Of a stretch of DNA of 64,000 bases, positions 14,153-62,729 are shown one piece after another. This DNA comes from Calditrichaceae bacterium (GTDB lineage: Bacteria > Calditrichota > Calditrichia > Calditrichales > JBFXGD01). The DNA is taken from assembly GCA_050173015.1 (NCBI GenBank), contig JBFXLE010000012.1, positions 32,001 to 96,000 of the forward strand. The letters run 5' to 3'. How positions within the stretch are numbered: the stretch's first letter is position 1; the number at the start of each line of letters is the position of its first letter. The translations under genes and the position numbers were made by a program. The notes below the pieces were generated by a model. The model had not been told where the DNA came from. It did not search any database and saw only the letters and a list, made by a program, of their open reading frames with translations.

Positions 14153-14156
14153 CCAG

Positions 14157-15446: not shown

Positions 15447-15460
15447 TGTACTAAAGTACA
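15447..15460. promoter_or_regulatory. Putative LexA operator TGTAC-TAAA-GTACA
   Basis: Inverted repeat between the -10 and the RBS of lexA. Confidence 0.82.
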
Positions 15461-15463
15461 CCA

Positions 15464-15492
15464 AAAATAAATATTAACAGAGGGGAAATCAA
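15464..15492 (-). promoter_or_regulatory. Sigma70-type promoter TTGATT-N17-TATTTT for lexA
   Basis: Hexamers with 17 bp spacer, immediately upstream of the operator. Confidence 0.5.
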
Positions 15493-22212: not shown

Positions 22213-22400
22213 GGATTTTTATGCGTTTAACTGTCAAAAAAGTTAATTGATTTCCGGGTGGATTGCAAAAAGCATTATTGAAAAGATTAATTCCATGGCT
22301 CGATATGTGATATCCCATTTGTATTATGGCGGACCGGTTGTAATTATGGTATAAACCTGCTAAATTTCTTTTGAGATTTATTTAGAATGGATTAATTCAG

Positions 22401-23498: not shown

Positions 23499-23569
23499 GC
23501 CGGATTAACTAAATTGACACACCTTAACAACATCTGGAACAAGAGACTTATTAAAAGCTTACACAACAT

Positions 23570-24547: not shown

Positions 24548-24675
24548 TTTTTTTCAGGCAGTATAAAAATAAATAAACAGAATTACGGGTTCAGCCAAAT
24601 TCGTTGTCATTTTAAATCGGAACATCGGTGGAAAAATCATCTAACTTTTCCGGATAAATAAGCATTGGACTAAAG

Positions 24676-43616: not shown

Positions 43617-43624
43617 GTTGCCCT

Positions 43625-45049: not shown

Positions 45050-45125
45050 TCCTAATCTATCTCACCTTAGCCGGATTCTGGTTAACAAAAACATCGCCGG
45101 GTGAATCATTACTTGCTTTTGCCGG

Positions 45126-45761: not shown

Positions 45762-45880
45762 CTTATAATTAGTAAATAATTCTCTGAACTTTTCTCAGGA
45801 TCTACATTTTACACTACAAAAATATCAAAACAAATCCAAAAAGAATAATTTTAAAGAACGGAAAAACACGAAAATAGTTT

Positions 45881-47695
45881 CTATTTATAGATCTTAAAAT
45901 TAGCGGTTTTTATTAAAGAATCCTCATCCCATTCGTTGGGCTGCCAGGCCCTCACATAGATAAGAGGATCCTTTTCGGTGAAATCAATCAATAGAAACAG
46001 ATATCCTTCATCAGAGTAGGTGGTTGAATAATAACTCTGACGCATTTCCACTCCATAAACCCCCTCGGTACTGTTCTTCTTTATAATGTCAAATGATCCG
46101 AAGTCAAGAAATATATCTTTTTGAAGGTTAAATACTTGTTCCTGTCTTTTAAGATAATGCTTTTTTGTCAGACGTACATATTCGTAATCAGGCTGATTAG
46201 TAAATTTCTGATAATTAACCATATTATCAGGCAATTTCACCGGAGTAATTTTACGACCAACAAGGATAAGCGCTTCATCAGCGAACATCAAATCCACCGT
46301 TTCAATATCACGGGTCTGGTAAGCCGTACGATACTTTTCAACAAACTTAATAATATCCTGTCTGTTTTCCCAATCATTGCCGTATTTTGCCTGTTCGGAG
46401 AAATGCCGGTAAAGATTTTCTGAAATACTAAGATTAAAGTCGATTAAAATTCCTTTATCTGAAAAATCAAGCACTAAATATTCTGTTGATTGTTTGTTAA
46501 TACCAGGGTAATGATGAAGCATACGTATTTTACGTAATTCATATCCGGAAGAGGTTTTGAAGATCCCGCCTTCAATATTATGCGTGGCGGGTTCCGCGGA
46601 ATTGTATCTCAGATAATTGATGATCTTGTGGTTTAGAAAAGGATCATTAGAATATTTTTCATTAATCATCGACTTATCATTTTTTGAAAGAAGATCTAAA
46701 AATTCAGAAGCGGACTTCAAGATTGTCGGTTCGACAAGAATATCTTTTTCCAGGGTAAGATTCATATTCCATTTATTGGATGCGCCGGAAGTTTGGACTT
46801 GCCCAGACTTGACTTTCTGATTGAGATCGACGTTTTTTGCGGAATTAAATGTGGGCAGGTTTACCACATTCCATAGTTCACCGACCACATTATATTCCTG
46901 ACGGGATTCATAATAGGCGTATTTTATGAATAATTTTAAGGATTCAAAGTTGGTGCTGGCTCCAAGCAGTCGAAATGTCGCGATTCCGTCTCTTCCTTCA
47001 ACTGCAACCTGGCTAGTTCCGTCCCAAAAAGTGAAATCAATAAGAGATACGGCAATTCCGTTCGAAGTAATATGAAGTGTTATTTCACGCTCCATGTCAG
47101 AGATTTTTTTGTCACCGGCAAAAGTAAATTTTAAATCAAGAAGAATCCGGTTAATACGCGCGGGCAGTTCTGTCGTATAATTAATATCCTGATATACAAC
47201 GCTTTCATCAGGTAATGACTGGACAAGCAAGAGAGCATAGTAATTCAGCTTTAACGCGAATGCAGTATTATGATTTAATGCATTTAATTCGGCTTTACGC
47301 GCGATTTCAGAAATCAGTTTTTTGCGCTCTTCAAAAATCTGAAAAACTTCCTTCTTGTCAAGGTAACAAAACGTTTCTATCTCACCGTTGGCCAGGGGCT
47401 TTTTTATCGTGTTTACGTTTTGAAGTGTCGCGGCGCTGTGAGTACGTATGATGGATTTGACAGACTCATCGAGTCCGGCCGCGTTTTCAATAATTTTGCT
47501 TTCAAAAGATTTTGCTACCCTAACGGCGATTTGCTCGGTCAGTTCTTCCAACGCGCGGTCACGGGATTCTCTGGTGTCATGGGCCACTCCGGAACCGTAA
47601 TAGTAATTTCCACTATTAATAACTTGTTTTTTATCAATTTGCTGAGCAAATAGTAAAGGTGTAATCAAAAAGATACTGAAGAAAATGATCCGCAC
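45881..47695 (-). CDS. Exported protein with N-terminal LPP20-like domain
   Basis: Signal peptide; YYYGSG...RALEELTEQI; C-terminal YRTAY and DEGYLFLLIDF..P.IYVRAWQP region. Confidence 0.6.
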   Translation of the reverse strand: MRIIFFSIFLITPLLFAQQIDKKQVINSGNYYYGSGVAHDTRESRDRALEELTEQIAVRVAKSFESKIIENAAGLDESVKSIIRTHSAATLQNVNTIKKPLANGEIETFCYLDKKEVFQIFEERKKLISEIARKAELNALNHNTAFALKLNYYALLLVQSLPDESVVYQDINYTTELPARINRILLDLKFTFAGDKKISDMEREITLHITSNGIAVSLIDFTFWDGTSQVAVEGRDGIATFRLLGASTNFESLKLFIKYAYYESRQEYNVVGELWNVVNLPTFNSAKNVDLNQKVKSGQVQTSGASNKWNMNLTLEKDILVEPTILKSASEFLDLLSKNDKSMINEKYSNDPFLNHKIINYLRYNSAEPATHNIEGGIFKTSSGYELRKIRMLHHYPGINKQSTEYLVLDFSDKGILIDFNLSISENLYRHFSEQAKYGNDWENRQDIIKFVEKYRTAYQTRDIETVDLMFADEALILVGRKITPVKLPDNMVNYQKFTNQPDYEYVRLTKKHYLKRQEQVFNLQKDIFLDFGSFDIIKKNSTEGVYGVEMRQSYYSTTYSDEGYLFLLIDFTEKDPLIYVRAWQPNEWDEDSLIKTANFKIYK

Positions 47696-48027
47696 GTTCT
47701 GACTCCATTCTTGAACGAATTAACCTAAAATATATAAACCGATATCTGCTGAATGATGTAAAATTTCATTGATTTTTTAAGAAACGCCGCCTGATGCCAT
47801 AATCAATTTATATTTTATCATCTGAGTGCCTATAGACCTTAGTATCATTTGAAAGGGAAAATCAGATCAAATATAATGGATTGTAAAATTTGAATCAATC
47901 GGATTCTTTTAACCATCGATTTGATGTGAATTTTCCGAGACTAAAATTCTTTACAAAACATCTATAGATTATACGATCTAATCCCTAATTTATTTACACT
48001 TTAGGATGGGCAATCCTATATTTATCA

Positions 48028-49842
48028 TTACTTGTTCGTTACTTTTTTAGACGGCCCGCCGCCAAACAAAACACCAAATTGAAGATACGCGCTTTCCTTT
48101 ATGTCATGATCATCACGATATTGCTGATACACAGCTTTCAGGAAAAAATTATAACCTAACTGGATTCTGAGATCCGCGTAATAACCATAGGTTGTTTGTT
48201 TGATCTTATCCACCCGGTCACCATCCAGTTCATTGTAAAAATAGTTTTCTCCGATAAACGCGCCGGCAGACGGATAGAGTGTTTCCCACAATACAAATGG
48301 AGTAAATCCAAGATAACCGTTCCAGCTATAGGTAACCAGACTATCTTTTTCGACAGAGGATGTGTTCAAATTTGTTGTTTTAAATCTAAAACTGCCGCCT
48401 ATCGTAAACGGATTCAAATAAACAGAAATATCCCCGATGTAGCCGTAGTCATCAAGCGGATCAGATATTTCATCGGATTGTGTGATTTCATTCAGCATCT
48501 CAGGGGGCAATTGCCAGTAATATCCGCCGAAAGAAATGAGTAATCCGTCCGAAACATCGGAAATCCGTTCATTACCAAAGGCGGTCAGACGGAAGAAACG
48601 ATTTCTTGTTTTAACAAGTTTATAATCACATTCTTTGCCTCGTGAATCAATGGAAAAGGATTTGTTTTTTGTATCATAGCCTTCTTTTTCTATACGGATT
48701 GAAAATTTTCCGGGTTCCAGTTCCAGCTCATATATGGGAATGGCGCCCATGTAACGGTTATCAATATAAATACCGGCTCCTTCTGTTCCCTTTACTGTGA
48801 GCAGTCCATTTGGTGATGGCGAGACCTGCAGATTCAGATCGTAGTCCCCGGTAACGTCAATATTAAGTGAATCGGGACGATGACGCCGCTTACGGGCTTC
48901 AAGTTGATACCGTCCGGCCGGGACTTTTCGTTTAAGAGGTGTCGAGCCGATGTAATTGTTATCCAGATAAATTTCGGATTCAGGGACATTGCTTTCAATA
49001 ATTAAAGTACTCTCTTTACGGAGAAGATTTACCTGAATAGGTACCGATTTCTCGGGATCATCATTCGGTATTATTTCCATGGCATAAGTAAAAGGATGAT
49101 AGTAAGGTTTTTCCAGACGCAGAAAAGCCAGGCCTTCGGGAACCGCGATAGGCAAATCAGGACTGAATGGCGCTTCTTTATCATTGATGTATAAGCGCGC
49201 GTCATTTTGTAGAATAGAAATGGTGACATAGCCAAATGTTGGTGTGAGCGTCACTTCTTCGTTTACGGTTTTACCCTCCTGTATTTTTATAAATATTTCA
49301 CGACGGACATAGCCTTCTTTGGTGATGATAAATTTCCATGTCTGCGCGCTCAGATTTTCAAAACGGTGGGGACTGATCTGGTTAAGGCCGGGCATTCCGT
49401 CAATTTGTATAGTGGCGCCGGCGGGTTGGGTCTTTAAAATTAGATGCCCTTTGCGCGAATTATACTTTGAATCAGCGGAAATCTTTATCACAAATACCGC
49501 GCGGGGTGCTAACTGAATACCAGCTTCCGAAAAAATGATTTGCATTGGCTGAAAACCGGTGTGTAATATTTCCAGCACACGCTCATCCGGGGACAAATAT
49601 ATGATATCGCGTCCCGGTTGATCATCCACTTTAACTACGCCGTTATACGCGTCATAACTGAATCCATCCATGTCGGATATGATCCGGATAGCGGCGCAGA
49701 ACCGGCCGTTCTCGTCTTTGATTCCAGTCATTTCATCAGAAGACTTTTCAGCTTTGCCTACTATTTGAAGTTGAGAGAGATTTTGAGCCTGAAGAAACGC
49801 AGATACCAGTAAAATAGCCAGTAACATCCTTGTCATGAGCAT
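48028..49842 (-). CDS. PEGA-domain exported protein, possible C-terminal beta-barrel
   Basis: Repeated PxGAxIxIDG / IGSTPL / KEGY PEGA motifs; aromatic alternating C-terminal strands. Confidence 0.75.
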   Translation of the reverse strand: MLMTRMLLAILLVSAFLQAQNLSQLQIVGKAEKSSDEMTGIKDENGRFCAAIRIISDMDGFSYDAYNGVVKVDDQPGRDIIYLSPDERVLEILHTGFQPMQIIFSEAGIQLAPRAVFVIKISADSKYNSRKGHLILKTQPAGATIQIDGMPGLNQISPHRFENLSAQTWKFIITKEGYVRREIFIKIQEGKTVNEEVTLTPTFGYVTISILQNDARLYINDKEAPFSPDLPIAVPEGLAFLRLEKPYYHPFTYAMEIIPNDDPEKSVPIQVNLLRKESTLIIESNVPESEIYLDNNYIGSTPLKRKVPAGRYQLEARKRRHRPDSLNIDVTGDYDLNLQVSPSPNGLLTVKGTEGAGIYIDNRYMGAIPIYELELEPGKFSIRIEKEGYDTKNKSFSIDSRGKECDYKLVKTRNRFFRLTAFGNERISDVSDGLLISFGGYYWQLPPEMLNEITQSDEISDPLDDYGYIGDISVYLNPFTIGGSFRFKTTNLNTSSVEKDSLVTYSWNGYLGFTPFVLWETLYPSAGAFIGENYFYNELDGDRVDKIKQTTYGYYADLRIQLGYNFFLKAVYQQYRDDHDIKESAYLQFGVLFGGGPSKKVTNK

Positions 49843-50108
49843 CTTTCCTTAGAAGAAAATATGGCGGGTGTATATGATAAAATCAATTTTATTTATAGGA
49901 TCGTCAATAGATATATCCTTGAAGAAAAATATCGGCACTAAAAATAAAAACTTCACAAAAAAACAAACGATGTCACAAATTAGATCAACTTGTTTAATAA
50001 AATGACTGCTTTTTTTTCTGATGTAACGCTTATTTACGGCCCGGCGATATATGAATTTTCATTTACTTTGTCAAGAATTGGGCGGCTGTCTGCGTGCGCG
50101 AACTCTCT

Positions 50109-50669
50109 TTACATATTACCTGTGCTCATGGTATCCGGCATCATTGTTTCACAGGATTCTTTCAGATTTTTAAGCCCCTTCTCAAAATCAGGTCCCATCA
50201 TCTGATCAAGAAAAAGTCCAAAATAACGTCCGACGGGATAATCCAGTTCACCGACATTTGCCCAGACAACCTGAGTGCCGGTTCCCGCGGGTTCAAATTC
50301 CCATACATCAAAAGATTTCATTGCCTGTGGTTCAAGAAAGATTAAATCGGATTTAATGGATTTGTTTTCTTTCGCCTCCAGAATAGTCAGATGACCGGTG
50401 CCAAGGATTTTTCCTTCCCACGCCCACCTGGAGCCCACCCCTTTTCCGGGGCCTGAGATTACAGATTTGGCATCGGGATCCATCGCTGTCCAGGGATTCC
50501 ATTTTTCCCAGTTCTTAAGATCAATAACCTGACCGTAAACCACTTCGACAGGCATATCAATTTCAACGGACCGTTCAACCCGGTAATCCGAAGGTAAAAA
50601 AAGAGCGACAACCAAAAACAGAGCGATTAGTCCGGCCAGCACATAGAGTGTTACTTTTAAAATCTTCAT
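50109..50669 (-). CDS. SRPBCC (polyketide cyclase-like) family protein
   Basis: VERSVEI, WEKWNPW..MDP, MGPDFEKGLKNLK. Confidence 0.85.
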   Translation of the reverse strand: MKILKVTLYVLAGLIALFLVVALFLPSDYRVERSVEIDMPVEVVYGQVIDLKNWEKWNPWTAMDPDAKSVISGPGKGVGSRWAWEGKILGTGHLTILEAKENKSIKSDLIFLEPQAMKSFDVWEFEPAGTGTQVVWANVGELDYPVGRYFGLFLDQMMGPDFEKGLKNLKESCETMMPDTMSTGNM

Positions 50670-50824
50670 GATCCCCCCTGATTATGTTTGAATGACTGAC
50701 TTATAAACGAATAATGTACCAGTATTTATTTCGATGCTAATAAGCAAATGAGATTTGCCGGATCGTGAAACACGCATCCGGAAGAAATCGGAGATGTGAA
50801 ATGACATTTTTCCCGTCTACAATT

Positions 50825-50954
50825 CTTACTTCCTACTTCTTACTTAAGGCTAAGGCACTAATTTCCTGTTCTTACTCTTTTTTCTTTTTTCTTTTATCTT
50901 TTGTCTTAATTTCCTACTTCCTACTTCCTACTTCTTAATTCTTACTTCCTACTT
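50825..50954 (-). repeat. Heptamer tandem-repeat composite element (AAGTAGG/AAGTAAG units plus A-rich heptamers)
   Basis: 6 units at 50913-50954 and 3 units at 50825-50845, flanking AAAAAAG-type heptamers. Confidence 0.8.
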
Positions 50955-52245
50955 CTCCTCCGTACTGCTTTGTCTCATGGCATCCCGAATAGCACATTTT
51001 TCCATCTTCGGTTTCCCCAATACGCGCCGGCATTTTCCATTTTCCAAATGACACTTTTCCGGCAATCAGATGCTCCTGATTTGATCCGTGCATATCGTGA
51101 CAAAGCACACAGTTGCGGCCTTTATCTCGCTTGACATGCAGATAATGGAGATTTTGTTTTCCATCGCTGAATCCAGACGCGTCCATTCCCGGGTCTTCAA
51201 TAAGTGAGGTTTCATGACAGTTGAAACAAACCGCGAAGGATTCTGAATCGCCCGGAGCGTATGCGCTATTGGGAAAGTCAGCGTTTAGCAGGCAGGTAAA
51301 TTCGGAAGAATGGGGAAGATGGCAGGATTCACATCCACCATCCATAGCCGGGGCATGGATAAATTCTTTTTCTTCCAAACGATTTTTGATTTTTCCCGCT
51401 CTTGAATACTCAACCGGCAGGGAGGTGTCATGACATGTAAGACAAAGCTCCTCTCTCTGCTGAGTCAGTAATCCATTCATCTCCGATGCGTGAGCTTTAT
51501 GACAGTCAAGACAGGCTCGTCCATCGTTTATCGCTTTATGCACTGAAATGTTATCGGATTGGTCTTCATGGCATTCATAGCACTGTCCGGGAACCGGCAT
51601 CTTCAGAAGTGACGTGTATTGAGATGTGTGAGTGTGATGACAATCCGAACATTCCCCCTCATAAGCGGGATGCACATTATTCAATGCCAGCTCATCTTTC
51701 TGCTCCTCATGACAGTCGAAACAAAGCTGCGGTGGCTCCTTTTTCAGAAAAGCTGCATAATCTGATTGATGCGGATTATGACACTCTGTGCATTGGTTGT
51801 TTTCCGCCGGCGGATGATTTACCGCCTTTGGATTATTATATAGATCATGGCATTTACCGCAAATCTCCCCCTGGTCGGCGGCGATCAGTAGTGCCGCGTT
51901 GTTGGAACTGTGGACATCATGACAGGCGGTGCATTCACCTGCGACAACCGGAGCATGAACATCATCTTTTTCATGTTTTGAATCATGACAATCATAACAG
52001 AGATAGGGCATTTCGTTTAACAGCGAAAATTCATTACCCTCTGAGCCGGGATGAATAAATCCGTTTGATTCATGACAGGAAGCGCAGTCATCTTCAACGG
52101 GCGGATGAATATGCGATCGGTCCAGATATGACCCGTGACATCCTCCCGCGGTGCAGTCTGATTCCAGTTCTGCCTCTTGAGCAAAAAGAGGAGACTGATG
52201 AAAGAATAGTATCACGGCGAAATAAAATATGATCCGAATGGTCAT
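50935..52245 (-). CDS. Exported multiheme cytochrome c (13 CxxCH plus one CX4CH and one CX3CH)
   Basis: Motifs counted in the translation; paired CxxCHxPH / LCxxCH pattern; signal peptide from ATG 52245 (AAGGA RBS). Confidence 0.93.
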   Translation of the reverse strand: MTIRIIFYFAVILFFHQSPLFAQEAELESDCTAGGCHGSYLDRSHIHPPVEDDCASCHESNGFIHPGSEGNEFSLLNEMPYLCYDCHDSKHEKDDVHAPVVAGECTACHDVHSSNNAALLIAADQGEICGKCHDLYNNPKAVNHPPAENNQCTECHNPHQSDYAAFLKKEPPQLCFDCHEEQKDELALNNVHPAYEGECSDCHHTHTSQYTSLLKMPVPGQCYECHEDQSDNISVHKAINDGRACLDCHKAHASEMNGLLTQQREELCLTCHDTSLPVEYSRAGKIKNRLEEKEFIHAPAMDGGCESCHLPHSSEFTCLLNADFPNSAYAPGDSESFAVCFNCHETSLIEDPGMDASGFSDGKQNLHYLHVKRDKGRNCVLCHDMHGSNQEHLIAGKVSFGKWKMPARIGETEDGKMCYSGCHETKQYGGEVGSKN

Positions 52246-52255
52246 GAGTTCATCC

Positions 52256-54223
52256 TTAGAATTTTCTTTCAACACGCATGAATCCGGCATTGTATGTTAT
52301 CTCTTCCCCGGAAAAATCGCGCCGGTAAGTTTCTAGTCCCACAGTCAAATACATCTGTCTGAATCGTGTTGTAAATTCACCCCGCAGCGTGGCAAGATTC
52401 AGATCAATGCCTCTTCCATCCTGAAAACGGTAGCTTGTTTCCAGACTGATTTGCGAGATACGGGAAAGACGATACAAAAACCGGCCGGTTAAATCCCTGA
52501 ATTTCTGGTCTTCCTCGTCTTCTGTCAATGTATAATTCCGGATATTTCCTGAGAGAGAAACATTTAGCCTGCTAAACAAATATCTGTTAAAAGTGATATA
52601 ATACCGGACTGAATGATAGGGAACGATATTGCTGTTGTAGTCGTCAATTTCTACCCCGCCGGAAATCGGTCCTTTTGTCAATCGTGTGCCAAATACTCTC
52701 TCGGAAACCGTTTTGAGTACGGCTAAATCAGATCCTTCCGGATTCTCAATATCCTGTTCATATGAACGAAAATATAACTCAGCAAGCTGATTAAAAACGG
52801 TTAATCTCGCTCCGAATGCATTACTGAGTATATCGTATTGGTATGAGGTCTGCCGTGTTACCGTGTAATCTACGAGAATTTTTGTCCCATCGGGGATTTG
52901 GCCACCAGGCAGTCGCTGAATTTCCAGGAAATCGCCTCGTGTAATCAGTACATAATCCAGATTCTCCTGATAAGGAATCAACCCTGTTTCATCGGTTACC
53001 ACAACACTTGCCGGATCCGCGTAAGGATTTTCCAGCAATATTGTTTGCCCGTCAAACAGAGTAACGGCCTCATTGATAATTCTTGACGGGCTTGGCAGGC
53101 TGTTCCGGTTTTCATTTCGCTTCCTGAGCTCGTAGTCGATGGAAAGGTTGCCGGTCGGGATTTTTTTTATATAGTTGAACCCGATTGTGCCCGTGTTGGT
53201 GTACTGATTAAATCCGCTCTGATTAAGATCGATATATTCATAATAGGCAAAACTTCTAAGGCTCCGGTATAACTGATGCTCAACTCTACCGGAAATATTA
53301 TGCTGGTCGGAGCTGAATTCCTTTTGATCAAAAGAAGCATATCGGTAATCACCAGAAAAATCCAGATTATACGGTAATACGAATCTGATATTCTCAGTGG
53401 CGGTTAACCGGTCAAACTCCTCGCTTCCGGTCTGCTTATAATACCAGATCAGAGAATTGAGATTATTATTGCGGTTCTTATCCAGGAAGAAATTATCCCG
53501 CAGATTGACGCTCGATATTTTATTGTGAATGGATGCGTTTTGCGCGTATTCACGTGAATAATCTTCATATGAATAAGCAAAACGATGGTCATCATAGCGG
53601 CTGAATGATTTGCTGAATTCGGATCTAAAATTATCACGAGTATTTACAAAATCACGCCCGGTTTGCAATTCCTTTTGTTCCCAGTTTTCATGAGAATAGC
53701 TAAATGTTACCGGGAGAATGTCGTTGCGATAGGCAGCTCCTCCGCCAATATCTGTTCTGTAGTTCTCGACATTGGTCAGGAATTCGCGGTTCACATAACT
53801 GTGGCTAAAATTCGTAAACAAGTTAAATGTAAAAGGGCGCTGTTTAAAAAATGATGTATGGAGATTTAATTTTTCACCTGTTTTTGTTTCAGTGCGGTTT
53901 GGAACAACCAAAAACTGATCCCGCCGGATGCCGGGATTGAAGTCAAAATCGGCATTTATCAACATAAAATTGGGGTGCCAGACATAACTTCTTGATCTTA
54001 ATAAAATCTCTCCGGAAAAAATCGTGGATTCAGGCTTATCAGATAAACCGGATGGATAAACTGTTTCCTGCGAACGGAATTCACTTTCCATAATGACGGA
54101 ACCGTTCAGCGATTGCAGGCGCCATGCCCCAATCGAATAAAGTTCACTGTCCTGTCCGGAAGAAGGAGACAGCAACATCAAAAGAAGAGCAGGGATTAAA
54201 CCAATTATTTTCCGTAACGTCAT
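52256..54223 (-). CDS. Large outer-membrane beta-barrel (porin of a porin-cytochrome conduit)
   Basis: Signal peptide, alternating aromatic beta-strands, C-terminal Phe (VERKF), lies between multiheme genes. Confidence 0.78.
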   Translation of the reverse strand: MTLRKIIGLIPALLLMLLSPSSGQDSELYSIGAWRLQSLNGSVIMESEFRSQETVYPSGLSDKPESTIFSGEILLRSRSYVWHPNFMLINADFDFNPGIRRDQFLVVPNRTETKTGEKLNLHTSFFKQRPFTFNLFTNFSHSYVNREFLTNVENYRTDIGGGAAYRNDILPVTFSYSHENWEQKELQTGRDFVNTRDNFRSEFSKSFSRYDDHRFAYSYEDYSREYAQNASIHNKISSVNLRDNFFLDKNRNNNLNSLIWYYKQTGSEEFDRLTATENIRFVLPYNLDFSGDYRYASFDQKEFSSDQHNISGRVEHQLYRSLRSFAYYEYIDLNQSGFNQYTNTGTIGFNYIKKIPTGNLSIDYELRKRNENRNSLPSPSRIINEAVTLFDGQTILLENPYADPASVVVTDETGLIPYQENLDYVLITRGDFLEIQRLPGGQIPDGTKILVDYTVTRQTSYQYDILSNAFGARLTVFNQLAELYFRSYEQDIENPEGSDLAVLKTVSERVFGTRLTKGPISGGVEIDDYNSNIVPYHSVRYYITFNRYLFSRLNVSLSGNIRNYTLTEDEEDQKFRDLTGRFLYRLSRISQISLETSYRFQDGRGIDLNLATLRGEFTTRFRQMYLTVGLETYRRDFSGEEITYNAGFMRVERKF

Positions 54224-54260
54224 TTTTTTACCTTAAAAATGATAAAACCAATCGGTGGAA

Positions 54261-54869
54261 TTACCTGAATAAATAAGCATCTTCACCGCCGTGCGGATTA
54301 TGACAATCCAGACAGCTAACTTCGTTTATATCCTGGTGAGCTTCATTTTTAAAAACGTCCCCGCTCTGATGACAGAAAAGACATAACTCCTGTCCGTTCC
54401 GAATCAAAAGATGTTCATTTTTTGACAGGTGTGGATTATGACATTCCGTACAAAATCCGGCCCCCACCGGTCCATGCAGCGCCTCGTAATTATCGTTAAA
54501 GTCATCATGACACTGATAGCAAAGGCCCGGTTGCTCATCGAGCAGGGCATTTCCCTTTTCAGGGACATGGCAGGCATCACATGATTTTTCGGCATAAACA
54601 GGGTGCACGGTCATTTTCGGGCGAACGGGATTTGCAGAAGCAGGTGTACCTGCAACAGGGACAGATGCCAGGACCGTATCAACTGTCGCCGATTGTTCCG
54701 CTTCGGGGCCCGGCACTCCGTCAAAAAAGGTAGTAAGAACTTTATGACGGCTTTCCGGATGACAGGCAGCCAAAAGCGCGATGACCGTCAATATAAAGAG
54801 GTGTGTAATATGAGTTCGCAAGGCTATTCTCTGAAATTTGGTTTTTGAACAATTTTTCAGATAACACAT
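54261..54869 (-). CDS. Pentaheme cytochrome c lipoprotein
   Basis: Lipobox LAAC; CDACH, CYQCH, CTECH, CLFCH, CLDCH; start uncertain. Confidence 0.9.
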   Translation of the reverse strand: MCYLKNCSKTKFQRIALRTHITHLFILTVIALLAACHPESRHKVLTTFFDGVPGPEAEQSATVDTVLASVPVAGTPASANPVRPKMTVHPVYAEKSCDACHVPEKGNALLDEQPGLCYQCHDDFNDNYEALHGPVGAGFCTECHNPHLSKNEHLLIRNGQELCLFCHQSGDVFKNEAHQDINEVSCLDCHNPHGGEDAYLFR

Positions 54870-54895
54870 TGTTCGCGTTTATATGCCGTTAAATA

Positions 54896-55969
54896 TCATT
54901 CCTTTACATCAACAAATCCATAGACGTTGATCTTATCAGGTCCATACTGATTGGTTACAAAAATCAGATATTGCAATTCGAAACCGGGATGAACATATTT
55001 CCGGAAATACTCAAGATTGTCATAATCTATAATCACTTTGGCGGGCAGCCACATATCACCGGGTCCTTTATAGCTTCCTCCGAAAAACATCAGTAATTGA
55101 TCTTCTTCATTAAATAGCTGGACATTTTCAAAGCCCGCGTCCACCACGTATAAATTGGATTGTTTATCTACCGATATTCCCTTAGGGCGTACAAATTGCC
55201 CGGCATTTTTTCCGTAGCTGCCTATGGATCGAATGAATTCGCCTTCGGTCGTATAAACTTTTACGCGGAAATCACCAAAATCACTCACATAAACCTGATC
55301 ATTTTTTACGAATAGATTTGTCGGGGAGTACAGGTTGCTTTCCCCGGTATTCTCATCATTGGGGATCGATCGAATCAGTTTATGGTCTTCTTTTGAAAAC
55401 GCCAGAATCTTATGGCCTTTGATATCGCTGACCCAGATTAAATTATTAGTGACAAAAACATCAGTCGGCCTCAGGATGTCCTCGCTGCCAAAACTGTTCA
55501 CAAACTTCCCGCTTTCATCAAATATAACGATATCGCCTCTTTCAGAATCAGCCACATAAACGCGTCCGTCAACATCCACAAAAGAGTTGATCGGTTTCTT
55601 TAACTGGCCCTTTCCGGCCGGTTTCAAATATTCAAAAGAACGGGTATTCAGATCGATAATTTCGAGTCCGCCAAACATGGTGTCGCAGACATATATTCTG
55701 CCGCGGTATATAGACAGTCCATACGGTTTGACGATGGACCGGTTTTCTTCTTCGCCCAGCACATAGCGGGCAAACGCGGAACGACGTCCGGTGATATCGC
55801 TTGAACTGCTGATACGGGTTAAAAACTGGATTCTCGTAGTAGCCGGAGGCGCGGGATAGATGATGACGTTATCGTCGTTCACAGGCCTGTTGAAGGTCCT
55901 GTTGCAAGAAAGCGCCATCATCACTATAAAAAAAGACAGAACAATTAACTGAATTAAATTCTTCATCAA
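54896..55969 (-). CDS. NHL-repeat six-bladed beta-propeller lipoprotein
   Basis: Lipobox ALSC; repeated KPYG / RPTD / RPKGISVD..YVVD motifs. Confidence 0.88.
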   Translation of the reverse strand: MMKNLIQLIVLSFFIVMMALSCNRTFNRPVNDDNVIIYPAPPATTRIQFLTRISSSSDITGRRSAFARYVLGEEENRSIVKPYGLSIYRGRIYVCDTMFGGLEIIDLNTRSFEYLKPAGKGQLKKPINSFVDVDGRVYVADSERGDIVIFDESGKFVNSFGSEDILRPTDVFVTNNLIWVSDIKGHKILAFSKEDHKLIRSIPNDENTGESNLYSPTNLFVKNDQVYVSDFGDFRVKVYTTEGEFIRSIGSYGKNAGQFVRPKGISVDKQSNLYVVDAGFENVQLFNEEDQLLMFFGGSYKGPGDMWLPAKVIIDYDNLEYFRKYVHPGFELQYLIFVTNQYGPDKINVYGFVDVKE

Positions 55970-56054
55970 ATTTTATCCGTATTCAATAAATTAGACTCAA
56001 AACCGGTAATAATTACAATTCAAATAAACCGCGGCGAATAATGTCTTCAACCGT

Positions 56055-56678
56055 TTATTTATTATGACAGGTCAGACACAAGGCGCTCGACGAATTGGAT
56101 ATGATGAGCAACTTGCTGAATCCCTGGCTGTTATGTACATCATGACAGGAGGCGCACTGCACTTTACCGCCGATTAACATGTCATTGCTAATGGTGCCGC
56201 CCATGCCTGAATTCGCGGTGGTCGGATCGTATAATCCGCCGTCTGAGTTTGCCAGCGCCGCGTCATAAGTAAAAGAAACCGGGTGATCATCACTAAGATC
56301 TGTTCCCACAAGGCTGTTTCCGGTAATAAAATGGCTTCCGCCTGTTTGGCCGCCGTAATTGTCAACGGCTATGGTGCCGTCATGACAGCTCATACAGAGT
56401 TTTGATGAAGCATCCGGTTGGCCCACAGTGGCGTTCATGGACGCGCTGCTGTAAGGAGTAAATGTGGCGGAGGTCATCTCATGATTCCATAACGGGGCAT
56501 CGCTGACGGATACATCGGCATTGTGAGTAGTATGGCAGACGATGCAAATCTGGTCGCTGGTATTCCAGGCCGCGGATGAAAAATCGTGGGCGGATCCGAC
56601 AATGGACTGCGCCAACGCGGTGCCGCTGAGCACCAGGGTAAAAGTTACAGCAAAGCAAAAACCTAATAATCGTTTCAT
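56055..56678 (-). CDS. Secreted tetraheme cytochrome c, OmcE-like
   Basis: Signal peptide; CIVCH, CMSCH, CASCH, CLTCH with HDFS, PLWN, CHDG and GTDLSDDHPV motifs recalled from Geobacter OmcE. Confidence 0.85.
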   Translation of the reverse strand: MKRLLGFCFAVTFTLVLSGTALAQSIVGSAHDFSSAAWNTSDQICIVCHTTHNADVSVSDAPLWNHEMTSATFTPYSSASMNATVGQPDASSKLCMSCHDGTIAVDNYGGQTGGSHFITGNSLVGTDLSDDHPVSFTYDAALANSDGGLYDPTTANSGMGGTISNDMLIGGKVQCASCHDVHNSQGFSKLLIISNSSSALCLTCHNK

Positions 56679-56728
56679 GACTGTTCCTTTCAATTGTTTT
56701 ATTGCCCTAAAATGTGAAAATCTTCCTG

Positions 56729-58417
56729 CTAATAAGTTTTTGGATCATGATCTTCTCCGTGACATACTAAATAACATGACCCTCTGGAGGATCCCTGATC
56801 AATAAACTCCAGTCTTGTACCGGAGGGGAATACAACGGAAACATCAAAATTAATAAGATGTGTGTTATTGGTCGCATTTCCCTGTAAACTGCTTATTCCA
56901 TGCGGATCGTGACATACGTTGCAGGGGGTATCTTCAGCAACGATATGCCTCCAGTGTACTTTTCTCGCAAAACTGCCGCTGCTGTTGATGATTGTATTTC
57001 GGTTGTGGCATTCATAGCATAAGCGGTAATTGTCATAAGATTCGGTTGTATAATCCGCGGTAACATACTGATATTTTAATATCTGCGGGTATATGGATCC
57101 GTGAGGTCCCGCCGGCGCGCCCGTTCCGTCGCTGGCATGACAATGGGTGCAGTAAATTATGCTTGATGCTGTGTAAGGTGATATCATCGACAAGACATTT
57201 GGATTTTTGCCGACTGCCTCAATCGGGTGGTATGAAGGGTTAGCCGGATCATATTCAAGACGCGTGTTGGATTGTTCAATCAATCTGATAGTCGGGCTGC
57301 CGGGTTTATCGGGACTGTCGGCATGGCATTTATAACACAACTCATACTGGTATTGTACCGTTTCGACCGCTGTTCCGTTTGTATTCAATCCGCTTGTGCC
57401 GGCAATGAATCCATTGGCGTTTGGCGCGGTGGCTGCTGAGAGTTTGCTGGAGTGTGGATTATGACAATCTTCGCACTCAACATGTCTGTTCTGGACAGGA
57501 ATATTTTCTTCCGGATCATGGACACCGGCATAATTGTAAACATCATGAATATACGGTTTGGTTGTGATAATTGTCTGAATGTTTTTAGCGGCGACATTTC
57601 CGTTATGGCAGTCCAGACAGTTATTCTCTTCCGTGAGTGAATTCAGCAGACGATCATGACTCTCTGAGTTATGAGGATTATGACAGTTTTCACAGCCGTT
57701 TTCCGCCACATTCGCGTAGGGGGTGTGAAACCAGGGATCATTTCCGGAGCCGTTCCACGTCGCGATTGAATTTTTATGCGATGAATTGACCCAGTCATTT
57801 TTCTGATGGCAATAGAGACAAAGATCAGAGTTTTGGTTGGTGGCGACCAGAAACTGTCCGTATAAATCGACATGCGGATCATGGCAGGAAGTGCATTGAA
57901 CACGCTCGTTTGCAAGTTTAACCGGCCCGGTAAGAACGGCTGGATCGCTTAGTTCACCATCAGCCGCCGATAAAGCGGAATTATATAAAAAGGACACCGG
58001 GTGATCATCCGATAAATCGGTGGATAAATTTTTATTACCGGATGGCATCATCGTAATTCCGCCACTGAATTCTATGGGTGCCGGTTTGCTTAAAACATTA
58101 CCGAGAGCGATGGTGCCGTCATGACAGGAAAGGCATAATAGTGAAGCGCCGTCCGGCTGCCCTGGGGAGGCCTGTGTGGTAGAACTGCCGTAAATTGTGT
58201 AGGTTAATCCCGGATCTTCACGATTCCATAATGGTTTTCTCGGGCTGCTCTTATGCGGAGTGTGACAAAAAACGCAGATTTCAGATTCGCTGCTGGCCTT
58301 AACTGTTCCCGGGCCGGTGACGGATAAATTATGAACTGAATTCACAATTGATTGTGAAAGCGCGATAGATGGAATCATTAATAAAAAGGTCCAGGTTTTC
58401 AGTAGCTTATTTTTCAT
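56729..58417 (-). CDS. Secreted multiheme cytochrome c (11 CxxCH plus one CX3CH) with N-terminal OmcE-like module
   Basis: Motifs counted; first about 200 aa are colinear with the adjacent tetraheme (ICVFCHTPH, PLWNR, CLSCHDGTIA, TDLSDDHPVSF). Confidence 0.9.
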   Translation of the reverse strand: MKNKLLKTWTFLLMIPSIALSQSIVNSVHNLSVTGPGTVKASSESEICVFCHTPHKSSPRKPLWNREDPGLTYTIYGSSTTQASPGQPDGASLLCLSCHDGTIALGNVLSKPAPIEFSGGITMMPSGNKNLSTDLSDDHPVSFLYNSALSAADGELSDPAVLTGPVKLANERVQCTSCHDPHVDLYGQFLVATNQNSDLCLYCHQKNDWVNSSHKNSIATWNGSGNDPWFHTPYANVAENGCENCHNPHNSESHDRLLNSLTEENNCLDCHNGNVAAKNIQTIITTKPYIHDVYNYAGVHDPEENIPVQNRHVECEDCHNPHSSKLSAATAPNANGFIAGTSGLNTNGTAVETVQYQYELCYKCHADSPDKPGSPTIRLIEQSNTRLEYDPANPSYHPIEAVGKNPNVLSMISPYTASSIIYCTHCHASDGTGAPAGPHGSIYPQILKYQYVTADYTTESYDNYRLCYECHNRNTIINSSGSFARKVHWRHIVAEDTPCNVCHDPHGISSLQGNATNNTHLINFDVSVVFPSGTRLEFIDQGSSRGSCYLVCHGEDHDPKTY

Positions 58418-59423
58418 CGGCATCCTTGTATATCAGTTCAAACATCTGTATGCGCGCGTTATAGCTGTCGGCTATGTAGATACGATCCTGGTGATCGATA
58501 TATATTCCCGACGGAAGCCAGAATTCACCCCGGCCCCGGCCCTGTTTACCAAAATAATGAAGAAAGTTTCCTTCTTTATCAAAAATCTGGACGGTATGGA
58601 AAAGCCCGTCCACCACGTAAATTTGTCCATGTGAGTCAGCAGCGATTCCTTTCGGGGCTGAAAAATAGCCGCTGGCGTCGCCGGCTTCACCAAAAATATT
58701 CACAAGTTCACCTGATTTATTAAAGACCTGAATCCGAAAATTCATTGAGTCAACCACATAGACATTACCCTTATCATCGATGGTGAGATAAGTGGGAAAA
58801 TTAAATTCAGCGGGCCCGGTTCCGCGTTGTCCAATTATTCTCAGTAGTTTGCCGGACTTATCCAATACAAGGATACGGTGTTTCCCGGTTTCCGTTACCC
58901 ATATTTCATTTGAAACATTTGAAAAACCGATTCCCGTCGGTCTGTCAATTTCTAATGAGGGATTTAATAGACCGGTTTTTCCCATTGTAACATTTTGGAC
59001 ATATATTTGATTGGTTTTTGAATCTGTAAGAAGCAGTGAATTTGAATCAAACCCGGACATACCGATAAGTGACGGAAAGCCGGTTTGTTTTTCCTGATAA
59101 AAGTTTTTGACCTGACCGGAATTTTGATCAATAAATGTCAGGGATTTAGCGCCCTGATCGAGTACCCAGATGGAATCAGGATCATCCGCGAAAACTGCCA
59201 CCGGTCTTATTAACGAGTGGAAATCTTTTCCGAAAATAAAATTAAACATTAACTTCGTAAAACCGGGCTTACTTTTCAAATCATCAGAAGATGCAAACTG
59301 TCCGGTCCATTTAACAGCGTGGGAATCGCTTCCGGAAACTACAGACTGATTTTCAACTGCCAGGCTCAGCATTGGAAATATGATCAGAATGGTGAATGAT
59401 ACTAACAGGAAATTCCGTTTCAT
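58407..59423 (-). CDS. NHL-repeat beta-propeller protein (exported)
   Basis: FNFPTYL..D..GNVYVVDS.NFRIQVF type repeats; signal peptide. Confidence 0.9.
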   Translation of the reverse strand: MKRNFLLVSFTILIIFPMLSLAVENQSVVSGSDSHAVKWTGQFASSDDLKSKPGFTKLMFNFIFGKDFHSLIRPVAVFADDPDSIWVLDQGAKSLTFIDQNSGQVKNFYQEKQTGFPSLIGMSGFDSNSLLLTDSKTNQIYVQNVTMGKTGLLNPSLEIDRPTGIGFSNVSNEIWVTETGKHRILVLDKSGKLLRIIGQRGTGPAEFNFPTYLTIDDKGNVYVVDSMNFRIQVFNKSGELVNIFGEAGDASGYFSAPKGIAADSHGQIYVVDGLFHTVQIFDKEGNFLHYFGKQGRGRGEFWLPSGIYIDHQDRIYIADSYNARIQMFELIYKDADEK

Positions 59424-59834
59424 CAGGACAAAATCCTTTTAAGTACGTTCATGGGTGCCATGTGAAAAAATATACTTATTTAGACCGATTATCAATTTAA
59501 TCGTAAAAAAGTTAATTCCTAATGTAAGATAATGGTTAAATTCAGCCCTTGTATGTGCTCTAAATCAATTTCAGATTGTATATAAAAGTATGACACTTAT
59601 TCAGTGACATGGAAGATATAAAAAAAAATGGCGGTTGAAAATGATTTTTTAAAAAACCTATGCAGGACAGTAATGTCAATGAAGTAATTATAACCCGCGC
59701 GGAGAATTGACCGGACAAAAACAATATTCACAAAAAAATTATTTGTTTCGGAAACTATCCTGTCAATTCCCCGGCGTCAGGTTAATGAGATGATTTGGCG
59801 GATATGTCTGATCCGGCATGCCCGGGGAATGAAA

Positions 59835-60260
59835 TTATTTCATCACCGCTTTTTTAAGCGCGCTGAGATTCTCACGTTCCCGGGCCGCTCTTCCCGCAAA
59901 GCTTTCGAGCGCCGTGACTTTCCATTTTAACACGCCCCACGCAGGGATACCGCGTATTATTTTATCCACTTCGCTGTTGGAGGACGCTTCCACGATAAAG
60001 ATTAATGCCCGGTCCCCGACCGCAAGGCCGCCGGCGATGATCTTCTTTTCGGCCTCAAGCGTCATTAATGCGTTAAAAGTCGGCAGTATCCCTTTTTCCA
60101 GGACTTGTATACCCTCTTCCGGAGATGTGTAACCGGGGCCATCGGATCCGACCACCAGGTAAAAATTACTACCGGAACCCGGCATTTTAGGCTGAGCCAA
60201 TGCGGACACGCTGAATCCAAATACAGCGATTGTAAATATCACCATGATTTGCTTCTTCAT
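59835..60260 (-). CDS. Exported protein, muconolactone-isomerase/dimeric alpha-beta barrel-like
   Basis: Signal peptide; IFIVEASSNSEVDKII..IPAW...WKVTAL pattern. Confidence 0.55.
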   Translation of the reverse strand: MKKQIMVIFTIAVFGFSVSALAQPKMPGSGSNFYLVVGSDGPGYTSPEEGIQVLEKGILPTFNALMTLEAEKKIIAGGLAVGDRALIFIVEASSNSEVDKIIRGIPAWGVLKWKVTALESFAGRAARERENLSALKKAVMK

Positions 60261-60620
60261 GACAATTTCCCCCTCATGAATTAATGATTAGATGAATTAA
60301 TTAAGTATGAAAAGAACAATAAATTCATTTTAAATCTCAACAGATTAGTGTTGCGATTTGAAGCGTGATCAAGTGGGGGGGGATTAAATGTCAGGTCACA
60401 ACTGTCAGATATCCGTTATAACTGATATTTTCGGTTTTTCATCCCAATTCTTTATATTCTTCTGAGATTATGATATGGTGGTAGATAAATGTGATGGTGA
60501 CTCTATTTGAAAAGATGACAAAATTTACACCGCGGAAGGCGGTGCTGTTGCGTTAAAAAATAATAATTCAAATAGAATAGAAGAAATAATCCCGATCAAA
60601 GCTATCCTATTAGAGATCCA

Positions 60621-62729
60621 TCAATCCCTGCGCAGACGGTTAATCTGATCCACGTCTCCGAGCACCAGCAGACGGTCTCCGGGCTGAATCTCATAATCAG
60701 GAGTCGGTATTGTGCCAGGTCGCCCCGGAATGCCGGCACCTGAACCCGTGGGTTTGCGGACCAGTATCACCTCGAGTCCGTAACGGGAGCGGATATCTAT
60801 TTCACGGATGGTACGCCCGATGAAGCTGTATGGCGGTTCCACTTCCGCCAGTCTGTATCCATCAGTTAATTCCACCTCACGTTCCTCCTGGACGGCGGTC
60901 ACCACGCTGTGCATGCCTCCGGCCAGATCCCATTTGAATATTTCCCGGTTGTAGGCGTCAATAATATCTTTACGTTGTACAGAACCGATCAGTTTTTTTG
61001 AATCCCTGCTTTCAATAACGGGTAGTTCATCCACATTATAACGGCCGAAGGAATGCATCACTAAATCAAGATTGTCATCGGGATAAAGATTTGTCGGCGG
61101 GGGATGGGCGATATCAGAAGCGATAACCAATTCAGCCAGATAGGATTCATCCTTTAAGAATTCTTTCAATTCAAGGATAGAAATCGTTCCCACCAGCTCC
61201 CCTTTTTTGTTAATCACAAAGTACTCCTGGTGCATGCTCCGCATCATACACCGGATCAGCTCGTTAAAGGTATCGTTCGCCGGAATGGTTTCAATGTCTT
61301 TTTTTAGAACATCCTTTACGGCCAGGCCCCGCAAAATGTTGATATCCCGGCCTTCAAATATATTGATTCCCCGCCGCACCAGTTTCATGGTGTAGATGGA
61401 CTCCTTTTTCAGATAAGTGGCAATAAGCACCGAAATAATACATGAAACCATCAAAGGGGGAATGATATGATAATCGTTTGTAAGTTCAAAGATAATCAGA
61501 ATGGCGGTGATGGGAGCATGTGTTGTACCTGCCACTAGCGCGCCCATGCCGACGAGAGCATACGCGCCGGCGTCGGCTGTGATCGCCGGATACATCAGAT
61601 GTACTTCTTTCCCGATCAGGCTGCCCAACATGGCGCCGATAAAGAGAGACGGGGCGAAAATACCACCGGATCCGCCTGAGCCGAGCGTCGCGGAGGTAGC
61701 GGCAATTTTTAAAAATATCAACGCTCCCAGCAGAAGACGCACATCCCGACCCCATAACGCGTCATTTATCGATTCGTAACCGACACCGTAAACTTGCGGA
61801 AAGCCAAGGGCAATGATTCCCACTAACAGGCCGCCGGCCGCTGGTTTCAGATATCCCGGGATGTTTAATTTCTCGAAAAAATCCTGACTCTTGTAAACCG
61901 AATGGATAAACAAAACCGCGATCAATCCCGCCAAAATTCCAAGTATGGTATAGGGGATAAATTCGTACGAACTGACAAGGTTGTAAGCTGGAACACGGAA
62001 CGCGGGAAAGTCGCCGATATAGTGTCGTGAGATAACGGTAGCGACGACTGATGAGATGACGATTGGGCTGAACGCCGGCACCGCAAAGTCACCCAGAATA
62101 ATTTCCACGGCGAATAAGGCTCCGGCGATTGGCGCGTTAAAGGTCGCGGCGATCCCGGCCGCTGCTCCGCATGCCACAAAAGTGCGGAGACGCCGGGCTG
62201 AAACAGCGAGAAACTGTCCAAAAGCGGAACCGATGGCCGAACCGATATGCACAATCGGTCCTTCACGGCCCGCCGAGCCACCGGAACCGATCGTAATGGC
62301 CGCTGCCAGGGCTTTGGCGATCACAACACGGGGGCGTATACTGCCGCCGTGAATAGCGACTGACTCCATCACTTCCGGAATGCCGCTGCCTTTCACTTCA
62401 CGGGCGATAAAATGAACAATGGGGCCGACAATGAGCCCGCCGAGCACCGGAATGCCCAGTTTCTGCCACCAGCTAAGCCCGCTTACCCAGTCAAGGGAAT
62501 AAATATCCGTCTGAAAAAAGGCGTGGTGGGTAATTTTAATCAAATAGCGGAAGAGAATCGCCCCAAAAGCCCCGAGAATACCGATAGCGATGGCCGTGAG
62601 CACCATGAATATATGTTCCGCCCGGCGTAACCGGCCAAACATCCCTACCAACTGTTTGATAAACCGGTGCCTGAGCCTGATAAGGCGGAGAATGATAATT
62701 TTAATAAATCGCCTGAATTCTATGGCCAA
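60621..62729 (-). CDS. ClC chloride/proton antiporter with CBS pair and TrkA-C domain
   Basis: GSGIP, GREGP and GIFAP selectivity motifs; two CBS repeats; C-terminal IPTPDYEIQPGDRLLVLG. Confidence 0.92.
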   Translation of the reverse strand: MAIEFRRFIKIIILRLIRLRHRFIKQLVGMFGRLRRAEHIFMVLTAIAIGILGAFGAILFRYLIKITHHAFFQTDIYSLDWVSGLSWWQKLGIPVLGGLIVGPIVHFIAREVKGSGIPEVMESVAIHGGSIRPRVVIAKALAAAITIGSGGSAGREGPIVHIGSAIGSAFGQFLAVSARRLRTFVACGAAAGIAATFNAPIAGALFAVEIILGDFAVPAFSPIVISSVVATVISRHYIGDFPAFRVPAYNLVSSYEFIPYTILGILAGLIAVLFIHSVYKSQDFFEKLNIPGYLKPAAGGLLVGIIALGFPQVYGVGYESINDALWGRDVRLLLGALIFLKIAATSATLGSGGSGGIFAPSLFIGAMLGSLIGKEVHLMYPAITADAGAYALVGMGALVAGTTHAPITAILIIFELTNDYHIIPPLMVSCIISVLIATYLKKESIYTMKLVRRGINIFEGRDINILRGLAVKDVLKKDIETIPANDTFNELIRCMMRSMHQEYFVINKKGELVGTISILELKEFLKDESYLAELVIASDIAHPPPTNLYPDDNLDLVMHSFGRYNVDELPVIESRDSKKLIGSVQRKDIIDAYNREIFKWDLAGGMHSVVTAVQEEREVELTDGYRLAEVEPPYSFIGRTIREIDIRSRYGLEVILVRKPTGSGAGIPGRPGTIPTPDYEIQPGDRLLVLGDVDQINRLRRD

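Follow-up and report, generated by a model that had tools for sequence, protein, structure and literature searches.

An OmcE-family tetraheme cytochrome in an omcE-type gene cluster of a Calditrichaceae bacterium

The array and its tetraheme cytochrome E

The stretch of DNA analysed here (the window) comprises 64,000 nucleotides of a Calditrichaceae bacterium (assembly GCA_050173015.1, contig JBFXLE010000012.1, positions 32,001 to 96,000). It carries on its minus strand an array of seven genes, designated G-F-E-D-C-B-A in the order in which they are read (50935..59423), which either overlap or are separated by gaps of 26-85 bases. Gene E encodes a cytochrome that a first-pass annotation had put forward as an OmcE-like tetraheme and a candidate subunit of a polymerising nanowire. 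This candidacy is supported by full-length similarity to OmcE, by the predicted fold, by the conservation of the ligand histidines and by the gene neighbourhood, each of which is presented below. The features of the array are collected in Table 1.

The reading frame of E runs from an ATG at 56678 to a TAA stop at 56055-56057. An in-frame TTG at 56693 provides an alternative, less likely upstream start; the ATG is favoured because the homologues start at the methionine of an MKR.. sequence and because AAGGA is found 7-11 bases upstream of the ATG. The N-terminus, MKRLLGFCFAVTFTLVLSGTALA followed by QS, resembles a Sec-type signal peptide with cleavage, placed by eye, at ALA↓Q, and the predicted mature protein of about 184 amino acids (aa) agrees with the earlier estimate of about 185 aa. 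The protein contains exactly four CxxCH motifs (C45IVCH, C95MSCH, C175ASCH and C201LTCH) and ten histidines in total, the non-motif histidines including H31 (AHDFS), H52 (TTHN), H132 (DDHP) and H182 (DVHN). The four motifs, the four extra histidines and all other motif strings listed in the first-pass annotation were found in the translation. The four CxxCH motifs, like H31, H132 and H182, do not vary across an alignment of 57 sequences, 53 of which also have H52, suggesting that these four histidines serve as the distal heme ligands. Since H66 is itself found in 49 of the 57 E-type sequences, a conserved histidine need not be a ligand, a caution that also applies to the extra histidine of F described below.

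Table 1. Features of the seven-gene array, gene E first (positions are those of the window).
Feature	Positions	Strand	Evidence
E, OmcE-family tetraheme cytochrome, putative filament subunit, 207 aa	56055..56678 (including stop)	minus	phmmer, alignment, AlphaFold2, Foldseek
Signal-peptide part of E, residues 1-23, ALA↓Q	56610..56678	minus	by eye; AlphaFold2 helix at residues 2-19
Heme motif 1 of E, C45IVCH49, putative non-motif ligand H52 3 residues on	56532..56546	minus	motif scan, alignment
Heme motif 2 of E, C95MSCH99, followed by invariant D100 and G101	56382..56396	minus	motif scan, alignment
Heme motif 3 of E, C175ASCH179, H182 3 residues on	56142..56156	minus	motif scan, alignment
Heme motif 4 of E, C201LTCH205, 2 residues from the C-terminus	56064..56078	minus	motif scan, alignment
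G, NHL-repeat six-bladed beta-propeller, 338 aa, signal peptide	58407..59423	minus	Pfam NHL, E = 1.3e-25
F, 564-aa cytochrome, 12 heme motifs (11 CxxCH and C550xxxC554H555)	56729..58423	minus	motifs, BLASTP, profiles, tree
OmcE-like module of F, residues ~24-208	57800..58354	minus	BLASTP, phmmer, tblastn of E against the window
D, NHL-repeat beta-propeller lipoprotein, 357 aa, lipobox ..MMALSC	54896..55969	minus	Pfam NHL and DUF5128
C, pentaheme lipoprotein, 202 aa, lipobox LLAAC, paired-CXXCH units	54261..54869	minus	motifs, Pfam
B, putative outer-membrane beta-barrel, 655 aa, signal peptide, C-terminal ..RKF	52256..54223	minus	C-terminus, published description
A, 451-aa cytochrome, 13 CxxCH, overlaps the end of B	50935..52290	minus	motif count

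Relationship of E to OmcE and spread of the gene cluster

When E was compared with the chain sequences of the PDB by phmmer, two real matches were obtained, both of them solved OmcE subunits. Residues 9-207 matched residues 9-232 of 7tfs_A, from the OmcE nanowire of Geobacter sulfurreducens (7TFS; E = 8.4e-28), and the full length was matched by 9yuq_N, from the OmcE bundle of Desulfuromonas soudanensis WTL (9YUQ; E = 1.9e-23). The motifs of E align one for one with those of both chains, in the order and spacing of OmcE. The annotation had given this motif order for OmcE and had called for a pairwise comparison with OmcE; the alignment confirms the order in 7tfs_A, and the comparison is significant over the full length of E. 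Like the G. sulfurreducens subunit, E is a tetraheme protein with four non-motif histidines, an identical motif order and a last CxxCH motif located 2 residues from the end. The conserved histidine pattern of E is the one published for OmcE homologues, reported to contain four CxxCH motifs and four other histidines (Petersen et al. 2026, PMC13712944). In the same report, the two proven OmcE wires share just 41% identity.

A model of E predicted by AlphaFold2 from the 57-sequence alignment reached a mean predicted local distance difference test (pLDDT) of 89.5 and contains few secondary-structure elements. In a Foldseek search of the PDB, the sole match of this model was 7TFS (E = 2.1e-9, template modelling (TM) scores of 0.64/0.66, 36% identity). 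According to the literature, OmcS (6EF8) shows the same heme stacking as OmcE and likewise has one heme completed by a histidine of the neighbouring subunit; unlike E, it is a hexaheme protein. OmcS was absent from the matches of E both in the phmmer search of PDB sequences and in the Foldseek search of the PDB. E has four motifs and not six.

With 207 aa, E is shorter than the subunit of G. sulfurreducens (232 aa), a shortfall which is spread over about ten short loop deletions, and shorter than that of D. soudanensis (218 aa), a bacterium of another phylum. On account of its compactness, E had initially been proposed as a minimal filament subunit. This proposal is not retained, because 207 aa is an ordinary length for the clade and shorter four-motif relatives exist: among the best 120 of 5115 related cluster representatives, 113 have at most 207 aa (median 206 aa), as have 30 of the 138 single-module relatives (median 215 aa) among 50%-identity representatives (P0121-P0270). 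The loops through which the D. soudanensis wires form bundles are conserved in no subset of homologues (Petersen et al. 2026), hence anti-parallel bundling cannot be inferred for E.

In its published minimal form, the omcE cluster encodes OmcE, a large beta-barrel and two each of multiheme cytochromes and beta-propeller lipoproteins (Petersen et al. 2026, PMC13712944). Genes G-F-E-D-C-B are this gene set, and A, whose relatives occupy variable positions in related loci, is probably a periplasmic feeder outside the six-gene core. D directly follows E in related loci as well, and G is conserved there beside F; the G protein has no cysteine at all, and hence is not a lipoprotein here. Both the barrel gene B and the lipobox propeller gene D lie within 2 kb of E on the same strand, which is conserved in related loci, and barrel and propeller neighbours are what Petersen et al. 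use to single out the OmcE homologues likely to form wires. In Geobacter-type omcE clusters, 15-70 glycosylation genes follow (Petersen et al. 2026). Unlike in these clusters, no glycosylation genes adjoining the array were found in Pfam scans of the window, where the nearest glycosyltransferase is 27 kb away (22401..23498). The cluster is thus of the 'minimal' type, as in D. soudanensis, whose tetraheme OmcE is also encoded without adjoining glycosylation genes.

The core gene set is shared with G. sulfurreducens OmcE, as judged from the published description and from the locus of a Geobacter sp. metagenome-assembled genome (MAG), in which the gene order is E-D-C-B-G-F instead of the G-F-E-D-C-B observed here. 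In G. sulfurreducens, the neighbouring loci GSU0615 and GSU0616 encode cytochromes, and an operon gsu0615-0616-0617 has been listed. Right after the omcE-type module of the Geobacter sp. MAG (locus L038, 16188..16592) lies an open-ended open reading frame (ORF) with three CxxCH motifs. On motif count only, we take this ORF to recall the triheme PpcA-type periplasmic carriers of Geobacter.

No attenuator or terminator of the kind known after some pilin genes was found behind E: the RNA of the E-D intergenic region folds no better than shuffled sequences (z = 0.49) and contains no terminator-like site, and a promoter scan of 50000..61000 was uninformative, with 25 sites for 23.7 expected. The best promoter-like site (59738..59766, minus strand; TTGACA, a 17-base spacer and AATAAT, 11/12) precedes the start of G by about 315 bases and could serve the whole array from G to A.

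Related loci were collected by a genome scan with one genome per species, which gave at least 542 relatives among at least 664 pattern matches; 75 loci (L001-L075) were kept. They carry about 17 phylum-level labels, which are those of the MAG records as given and may hold errors. The ORFs of at least 80 aa in these loci were compared with the window proteins by phmmer (E <= 1e-5), a survey that undercounts, as many loci end at contig ends and size filters miss over-extended ORFs. A stand-alone E-type gene was detected in 63 of the 75 loci, an F-type gene in 41, including the Geobacter sp. MAG, a C-type gene in 35 and a B-type gene in 47, while at least one NHL propeller was present in 67 and at least two in 44. 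All six classes were found together in 21 of the 75 loci; among the 32 loci with a length of at least 16 kb, 14 had the full set. The labels of the 21 complete loci span at least eight phyla. The closest of the 75 loci, from a Calditrichaceae MAG (L001), holds the best matches of E, F, D, G and B, in agreement with an origin of the window in Calditrichota.

The order G-F-E-D-C-B was observed in Calditrichota, Ignavibacteriota and Bacteroidota, and the order E-D-C-B-G-F in the Geobacter sp. MAG and in records labelled Desulfobulbaceae, Acidobacteriota, Planctomycetota and Nitrospirae. A record of Ignavibacterium album (L018) contains all of the module. The two orders are circular permutations of the six-gene module and track broad lineages. 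Extra E-type paralogues were also observed, with five ORFs matching E in L013 and four each in L009, L040, L051, L053, L059 and L070, counts which include the F-type ORFs.

The survey of Petersen et al. (2026, PMC13712944) names five phyla with OmcE homologues, which do not include Calditrichota, Bacteroidota, Ignavibacteriota, Planctomycetota, Verrucomicrobiota, Acidobacteriota or Gemmatimonadota. A full-text literature search found no paper in which OmcE occurs together with Calditrich*, and OmcE was not found to be claimed for Ignavibacteria either. The loci described here extend the complete omcE-type module, made up of two propellers, the 12-heme F, OmcE, the 5-heme C and the barrel, well beyond the five published phyla. 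This spread suggests that cytochrome-wire machinery reaches much further among the bacteria of sediments and soils than one would expect from the model organisms.

E has a very large number of relatives. A word-indexed search retrieved 5115 related cluster representatives (E <= 0.001), the best 120 of which are 64-100% identical to E, have 191-230 aa and include named entries from Calditrichaceae, Calditrichia, Caldithrix abyssi, KSB1 and Chlorobi. The protein of Caldithrix abyssi (P0078) shares 67% identity with E. An exhaustive search of 50%-identity representatives gave 5131 relatives at E <= 0.001 and 501 at E <= 1e-30. In view of the homology to OmcE, the published cluster and these thousands of relatives, E is a further member of the known OmcE family and not a new kind of wire.

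The abundance of relatives can be turned against a filament, because filaments have been proven in very few species of so large a family. E could instead be a non-polymerising tetraheme carrier of the outer surface or the periplasm which has the OmcE fold but functions singly or in small oligomers bound to the neighbouring porin-cytochrome complex. We regard such a carrier as unlikely, since E has the barrel and propeller neighbours published for likely wire formers and since H31 is invariant in 57 of 57 sequences. H31 may be the histidine donated in trans to the next subunit, as suggested by this invariance, by its position eight residues into the mature chain and by analogy with OmcS; in that case, one heme of a monomer would lack its sixth ligand.

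Several relatives depart from the four-motif, single-module form. Four of them contain more than one OmcE-like module: P0121 (1400 aa, 4 matched stretches, 16 CxxCH), P0122 (965 aa, 3 stretches, 20 CxxCH), P0123 (459 aa, 2 stretches, 12 CxxCH) and P0125 (819 aa, 2 stretches, 18 CxxCH), which resemble wire segments already joined covalently. A fifth CxxCH motif was observed in 7 of the 138 single-module relatives among the 50%-identity representatives. These five-motif relatives match the '5-heme OmcE-like' group, which Petersen et al. (2026, PMC13712944) suggest as a possible family of leaky wires. A Frackibacter locus (L058, labelled Bacillota) contains two adjacent five-motif genes and a 14-motif F-like gene, and no barrel gene was detected within the 16.7 kb of that locus.

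Proposed filament mechanism and the outer-membrane conduit

We consider it likely that E, an OmcE-family tetraheme encoded in an omcE-type cluster, works by the filament mechanism of OmcE. Sec export and periplasmic heme attachment are established for c-type cytochromes. The precursor of E would be exported by Sec, and four covalent bis-histidine hemes would be attached in the periplasm. The protein would then cross the outer membrane at the barrel B, aided by the NHL propellers D and G, a route suggested by synteny and by the hypothesis of a 'porin-like pathway' to which Petersen et al. (2026, PMC13712944) refer. Outside the cell, homology suggests that E would polymerise head to tail as OmcE does, with the terminal hemes of neighbouring subunits stacked and one heme completed by a histidine of the next subunit, resulting in an insulated heme wire. 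Electrons would pass from the periplasm to this wire through A and C, both possibly MtrA-like, and through the 12-heme F.

Several points weigh against this mechanism. The match to 7TFS rests on a predicted model lacking hemes, with a root-mean-square deviation of 5.2 A over 205 columns, and the conserved heme motifs supply part of any similarity score between cytochromes. Only one of the two propellers (D) is a lipoprotein here, whereas the published cluster has two, and for B no relative was detected in either Pfam or the PDB. Furthermore, the only solved filaments are those of G. sulfurreducens and D. soudanensis, filaments having also been seen in G. metallireducens; all three species belong to Desulfuromonadia. 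The physiological role of cytochrome filaments is itself disputed (PMC11077965).

The assignment of B as a putative outer-membrane barrel draws on its signal peptide, its C-terminal aromatic residue and the published 'large beta-barrel' of such clusters. A C-terminal aromatic residue is the usual signature of outer-membrane barrels, and of 43 full-length homologues of B, 34 end in F and 3 in W. No Pfam family was found in B, nor in any of 28 homologues apart from two single matches at chance level, and a profile of B had no relative in the PDB (best E = 0.36). Porin_4, which 33% of the cluster members carry, came up as a weak lead in a language-model search (score 0.89), and the Atlas neighbours of B are unnamed families. 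In the central segment of B (residues ~385-462), D423, Y424, G441 and Y453 are invariant or nearly so across 28 homologues. The same segment weakly resembles a phage tail tube model of NCBIfam, scoring 28.7 bits (E = 8.3e-7) where the cut-off is 60, and it may be an inserted soluble or plug domain.

Both A and C match 6r2q_A (E = 2.7e-12 and 1.9e-12, respectively), over 55-90 residues of paired-CXXCH units only. We take 6r2q_A to be MtrA, the cytochrome of the Mtr complex. The chain is labelled 'Cystathionine beta-synthase' in the sequence library and 'Structure of the Mtr complex' in the structure library, an apparent database slip. In having a beta-barrel gene beside genes for multiheme cytochromes, of which A and C resemble Mtr chain A over short stretches, the cluster is similar to porin-cytochrome conduits (MtrCAB, 6R2Q; Geobacter Pcc). 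However, B, for which neither Pfam nor the PDB offered a relative, was not recognised as an MtrB- or OmbB-like porin, and the Mtr and Pcc systems lack the NHL propellers and the OmcE subunit, whereas the cluster of E has two propellers and an OmcE homologue.

The direction in which electrons would travel through such a conduit can be read in two ways. Heme wires are reversible in principle, so the cluster might run in reverse and take up electrons, either by oxidation of Fe(II) or a cathode or by interspecies transfer. Related loci do occur in lineages for which metal reduction is not known (Woeseiaceae, Thiobacillaceae, Sterolibacterium and a Thiodiazotropha symbiont), and Caldithrix is not known to reduce Fe(III), a capacity that, according to a 2018 paper, was not explicitly tested; the same paper noted a porin-cytochrome-like system in a Caldithrix genome. 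Yet the characterised OmcE proteins act in the reduction of Fe(III) and Mn(IV) oxides and in direct interspecies electron transfer, and nothing in the window indicates lithotrophic iron oxidation. General Pfam scans of the window proteins revealed no Cyc2-like gene, no search aimed at Cyc2 having been made. We regard electron uptake as improbable and prefer outward transfer through a wire of E.

The 12-heme neighbour F and other parts of the window

Protein F consists of an N-terminal OmcE module and an extension with 8 more hemes. The module is 41% identical to E (BLASTP, E = 6e-46), and the mature N-termini of the two proteins are nearly alike (QSIVGSAH in E and QSIVNSVH in F). A predicted model of F has a mean pLDDT of 73.7, with low values over the N-terminal module, and its sole significant fold match is 7TFS (E = 8.9e-8). 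The C-terminal extension had no significant fold match, the best after 7TFS having E = 0.2, and the sequence profile gave weak matches to 6i5b, 6r2q_A and 6qvm and nothing stronger. Among 33 homologues of F, the 12 heme motifs and 13 non-motif histidines are invariant, three more histidines are present in 29-31 of the 33, and no methionine is conserved. With 13 invariant non-motif histidines, F has at least one conserved histidine beyond the need of 12 bis-histidine hemes.

The better score of F against OmcE raises the question of which of the two genes is the counterpart of omcE. Residues 10-208 of F match 7tfs_A with E = 1.6e-31, compared with 8.4e-28 for E, and a profile of the 33 F homologues reaches 1.1e-48 (OmcS 6EF8 has only E = 0.051 against this profile). 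F could accordingly be seen as the true counterpart of OmcE and E as an accessory or cap protein. This is very improbable, since in the Geobacter sp. MAG, too, E matches 7TFS with only 9.6e-16 and F with 6.6e-29. The better OmcE score of F can readily be put down to slower divergence. In addition, both solved OmcE subunits are stand-alone proteins (232 and 218 aa) like E, and the 360-aa extension of F, which starts right after heme motif 4, would block the docking face for the next subunit.

A quick maximum-likelihood tree was built from 65 stand-alone four-motif modules and 43 F modules, leaving out modules with other motif counts and matches shorter than 150 residues. A single set, with a Shimodaira-Hasegawa-like approximate likelihood ratio test (SH-aLRT) support of 97 and many phylum labels, unites all 43 F modules and one further row, probably a truncated F, from a contig end. 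The 64 other stand-alone rows, among them that of the Geobacter sp. MAG, lie outside this set. We reject F as the real OmcE orthologue on the basis of the tree and the architecture, and the grouping of the F modules indicates that F is an old paralogue which travels with E.

A tentative role for F, which we hold to be possible but somewhat doubtful, is that of a terminal subunit of the OmcE wire, either anchor or tip, encoded by the cluster itself. The OmcE module of F would dock on the end of the filament through the normal subunit interface, its extension would complete in cis the module heme that normally awaits the histidine of a neighbour, and the 8 extra hemes would wire the filament to the barrel, in the case of an anchor, or to a mineral, in the case of a tip.

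Modelling of the pair formed by mature E and residues 24-235 of F with ESMFold2 gave interface scores (interaction prediction score from aligned errors, ipSAE) of 0.60, 0.57 and 0.56 (median 0.57), the best of 3 controls being 0.00. Contact agreement between the runs was at least 94%, and the pLDDT of the partner was at least 80. The mark used for ipSAE is reached by 116 of 157 solved complexes and by 2 of 215 mismatched pairs; at ipSAE <= 0.60, it is reached by only 18 of the 157 solved complexes and by both mismatches. Because the OmcE filament has already been solved, the pass of the E-F pair may be recall from training. The pair model thus lends weak support to the docking of F.

How OmcE wires are anchored, started and ended was stated as an open question by Petersen et al. 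(2026, PMC13712944). These authors define an 'anchor' as an OmcE-like protein with nine histidines for four hemes and state that omcE operons encode no such candidate. They also draw a functional analogy with chaperone-usher pili for termination and anchoring, in which a subunit completes its neighbour. In such pili, a variant subunit of the same operon could end or anchor the fibre, as is proposed here for F. Chaperone-usher pili are not homologous to these wires, and the item exchanged here would be a heme ligand and not a beta-strand. F, a conserved protein with a built-in OmcE module, is a directly testable candidate for the anchoring or termination of the wire. F-type proteins may already have been treated in other literature on OmcE structures. 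OmcE-like multiheme cytochromes with 8-13 hemes, mentioned for clusters of Acidobacteriota and Verrucomicrobiota in a 2026 peat preprint, may be proteins of the F type.

Three other regions of the window deserve a brief mention. Downstream of the array, on the minus strand (42573..49842), is a series of genes for envelope proteins, namely an LPP20-like protein, an uncharacterised 474-aa protein, an LpoB-like protein, an uncharacterised 604-aa protein and another 604-aa protein with three PEGA domains, which looks like a separate surface-structure or lipoprotein cluster. Further away, an SOS-type cassette was found on the minus strand (12586..15464), encoding LexA (14811..15464), a second S24 peptidase-like protein (14307..14759) and a Y-family polymerase (12586..13812). 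Finally, the region 21148..25773 encodes two radical-SAM/SPASM proteins and, between them, a family-2 glycosyltransferase and a protein whose membrane domain is of the LPG-synthase type, which may together form a small lipid or peptide modification cluster.

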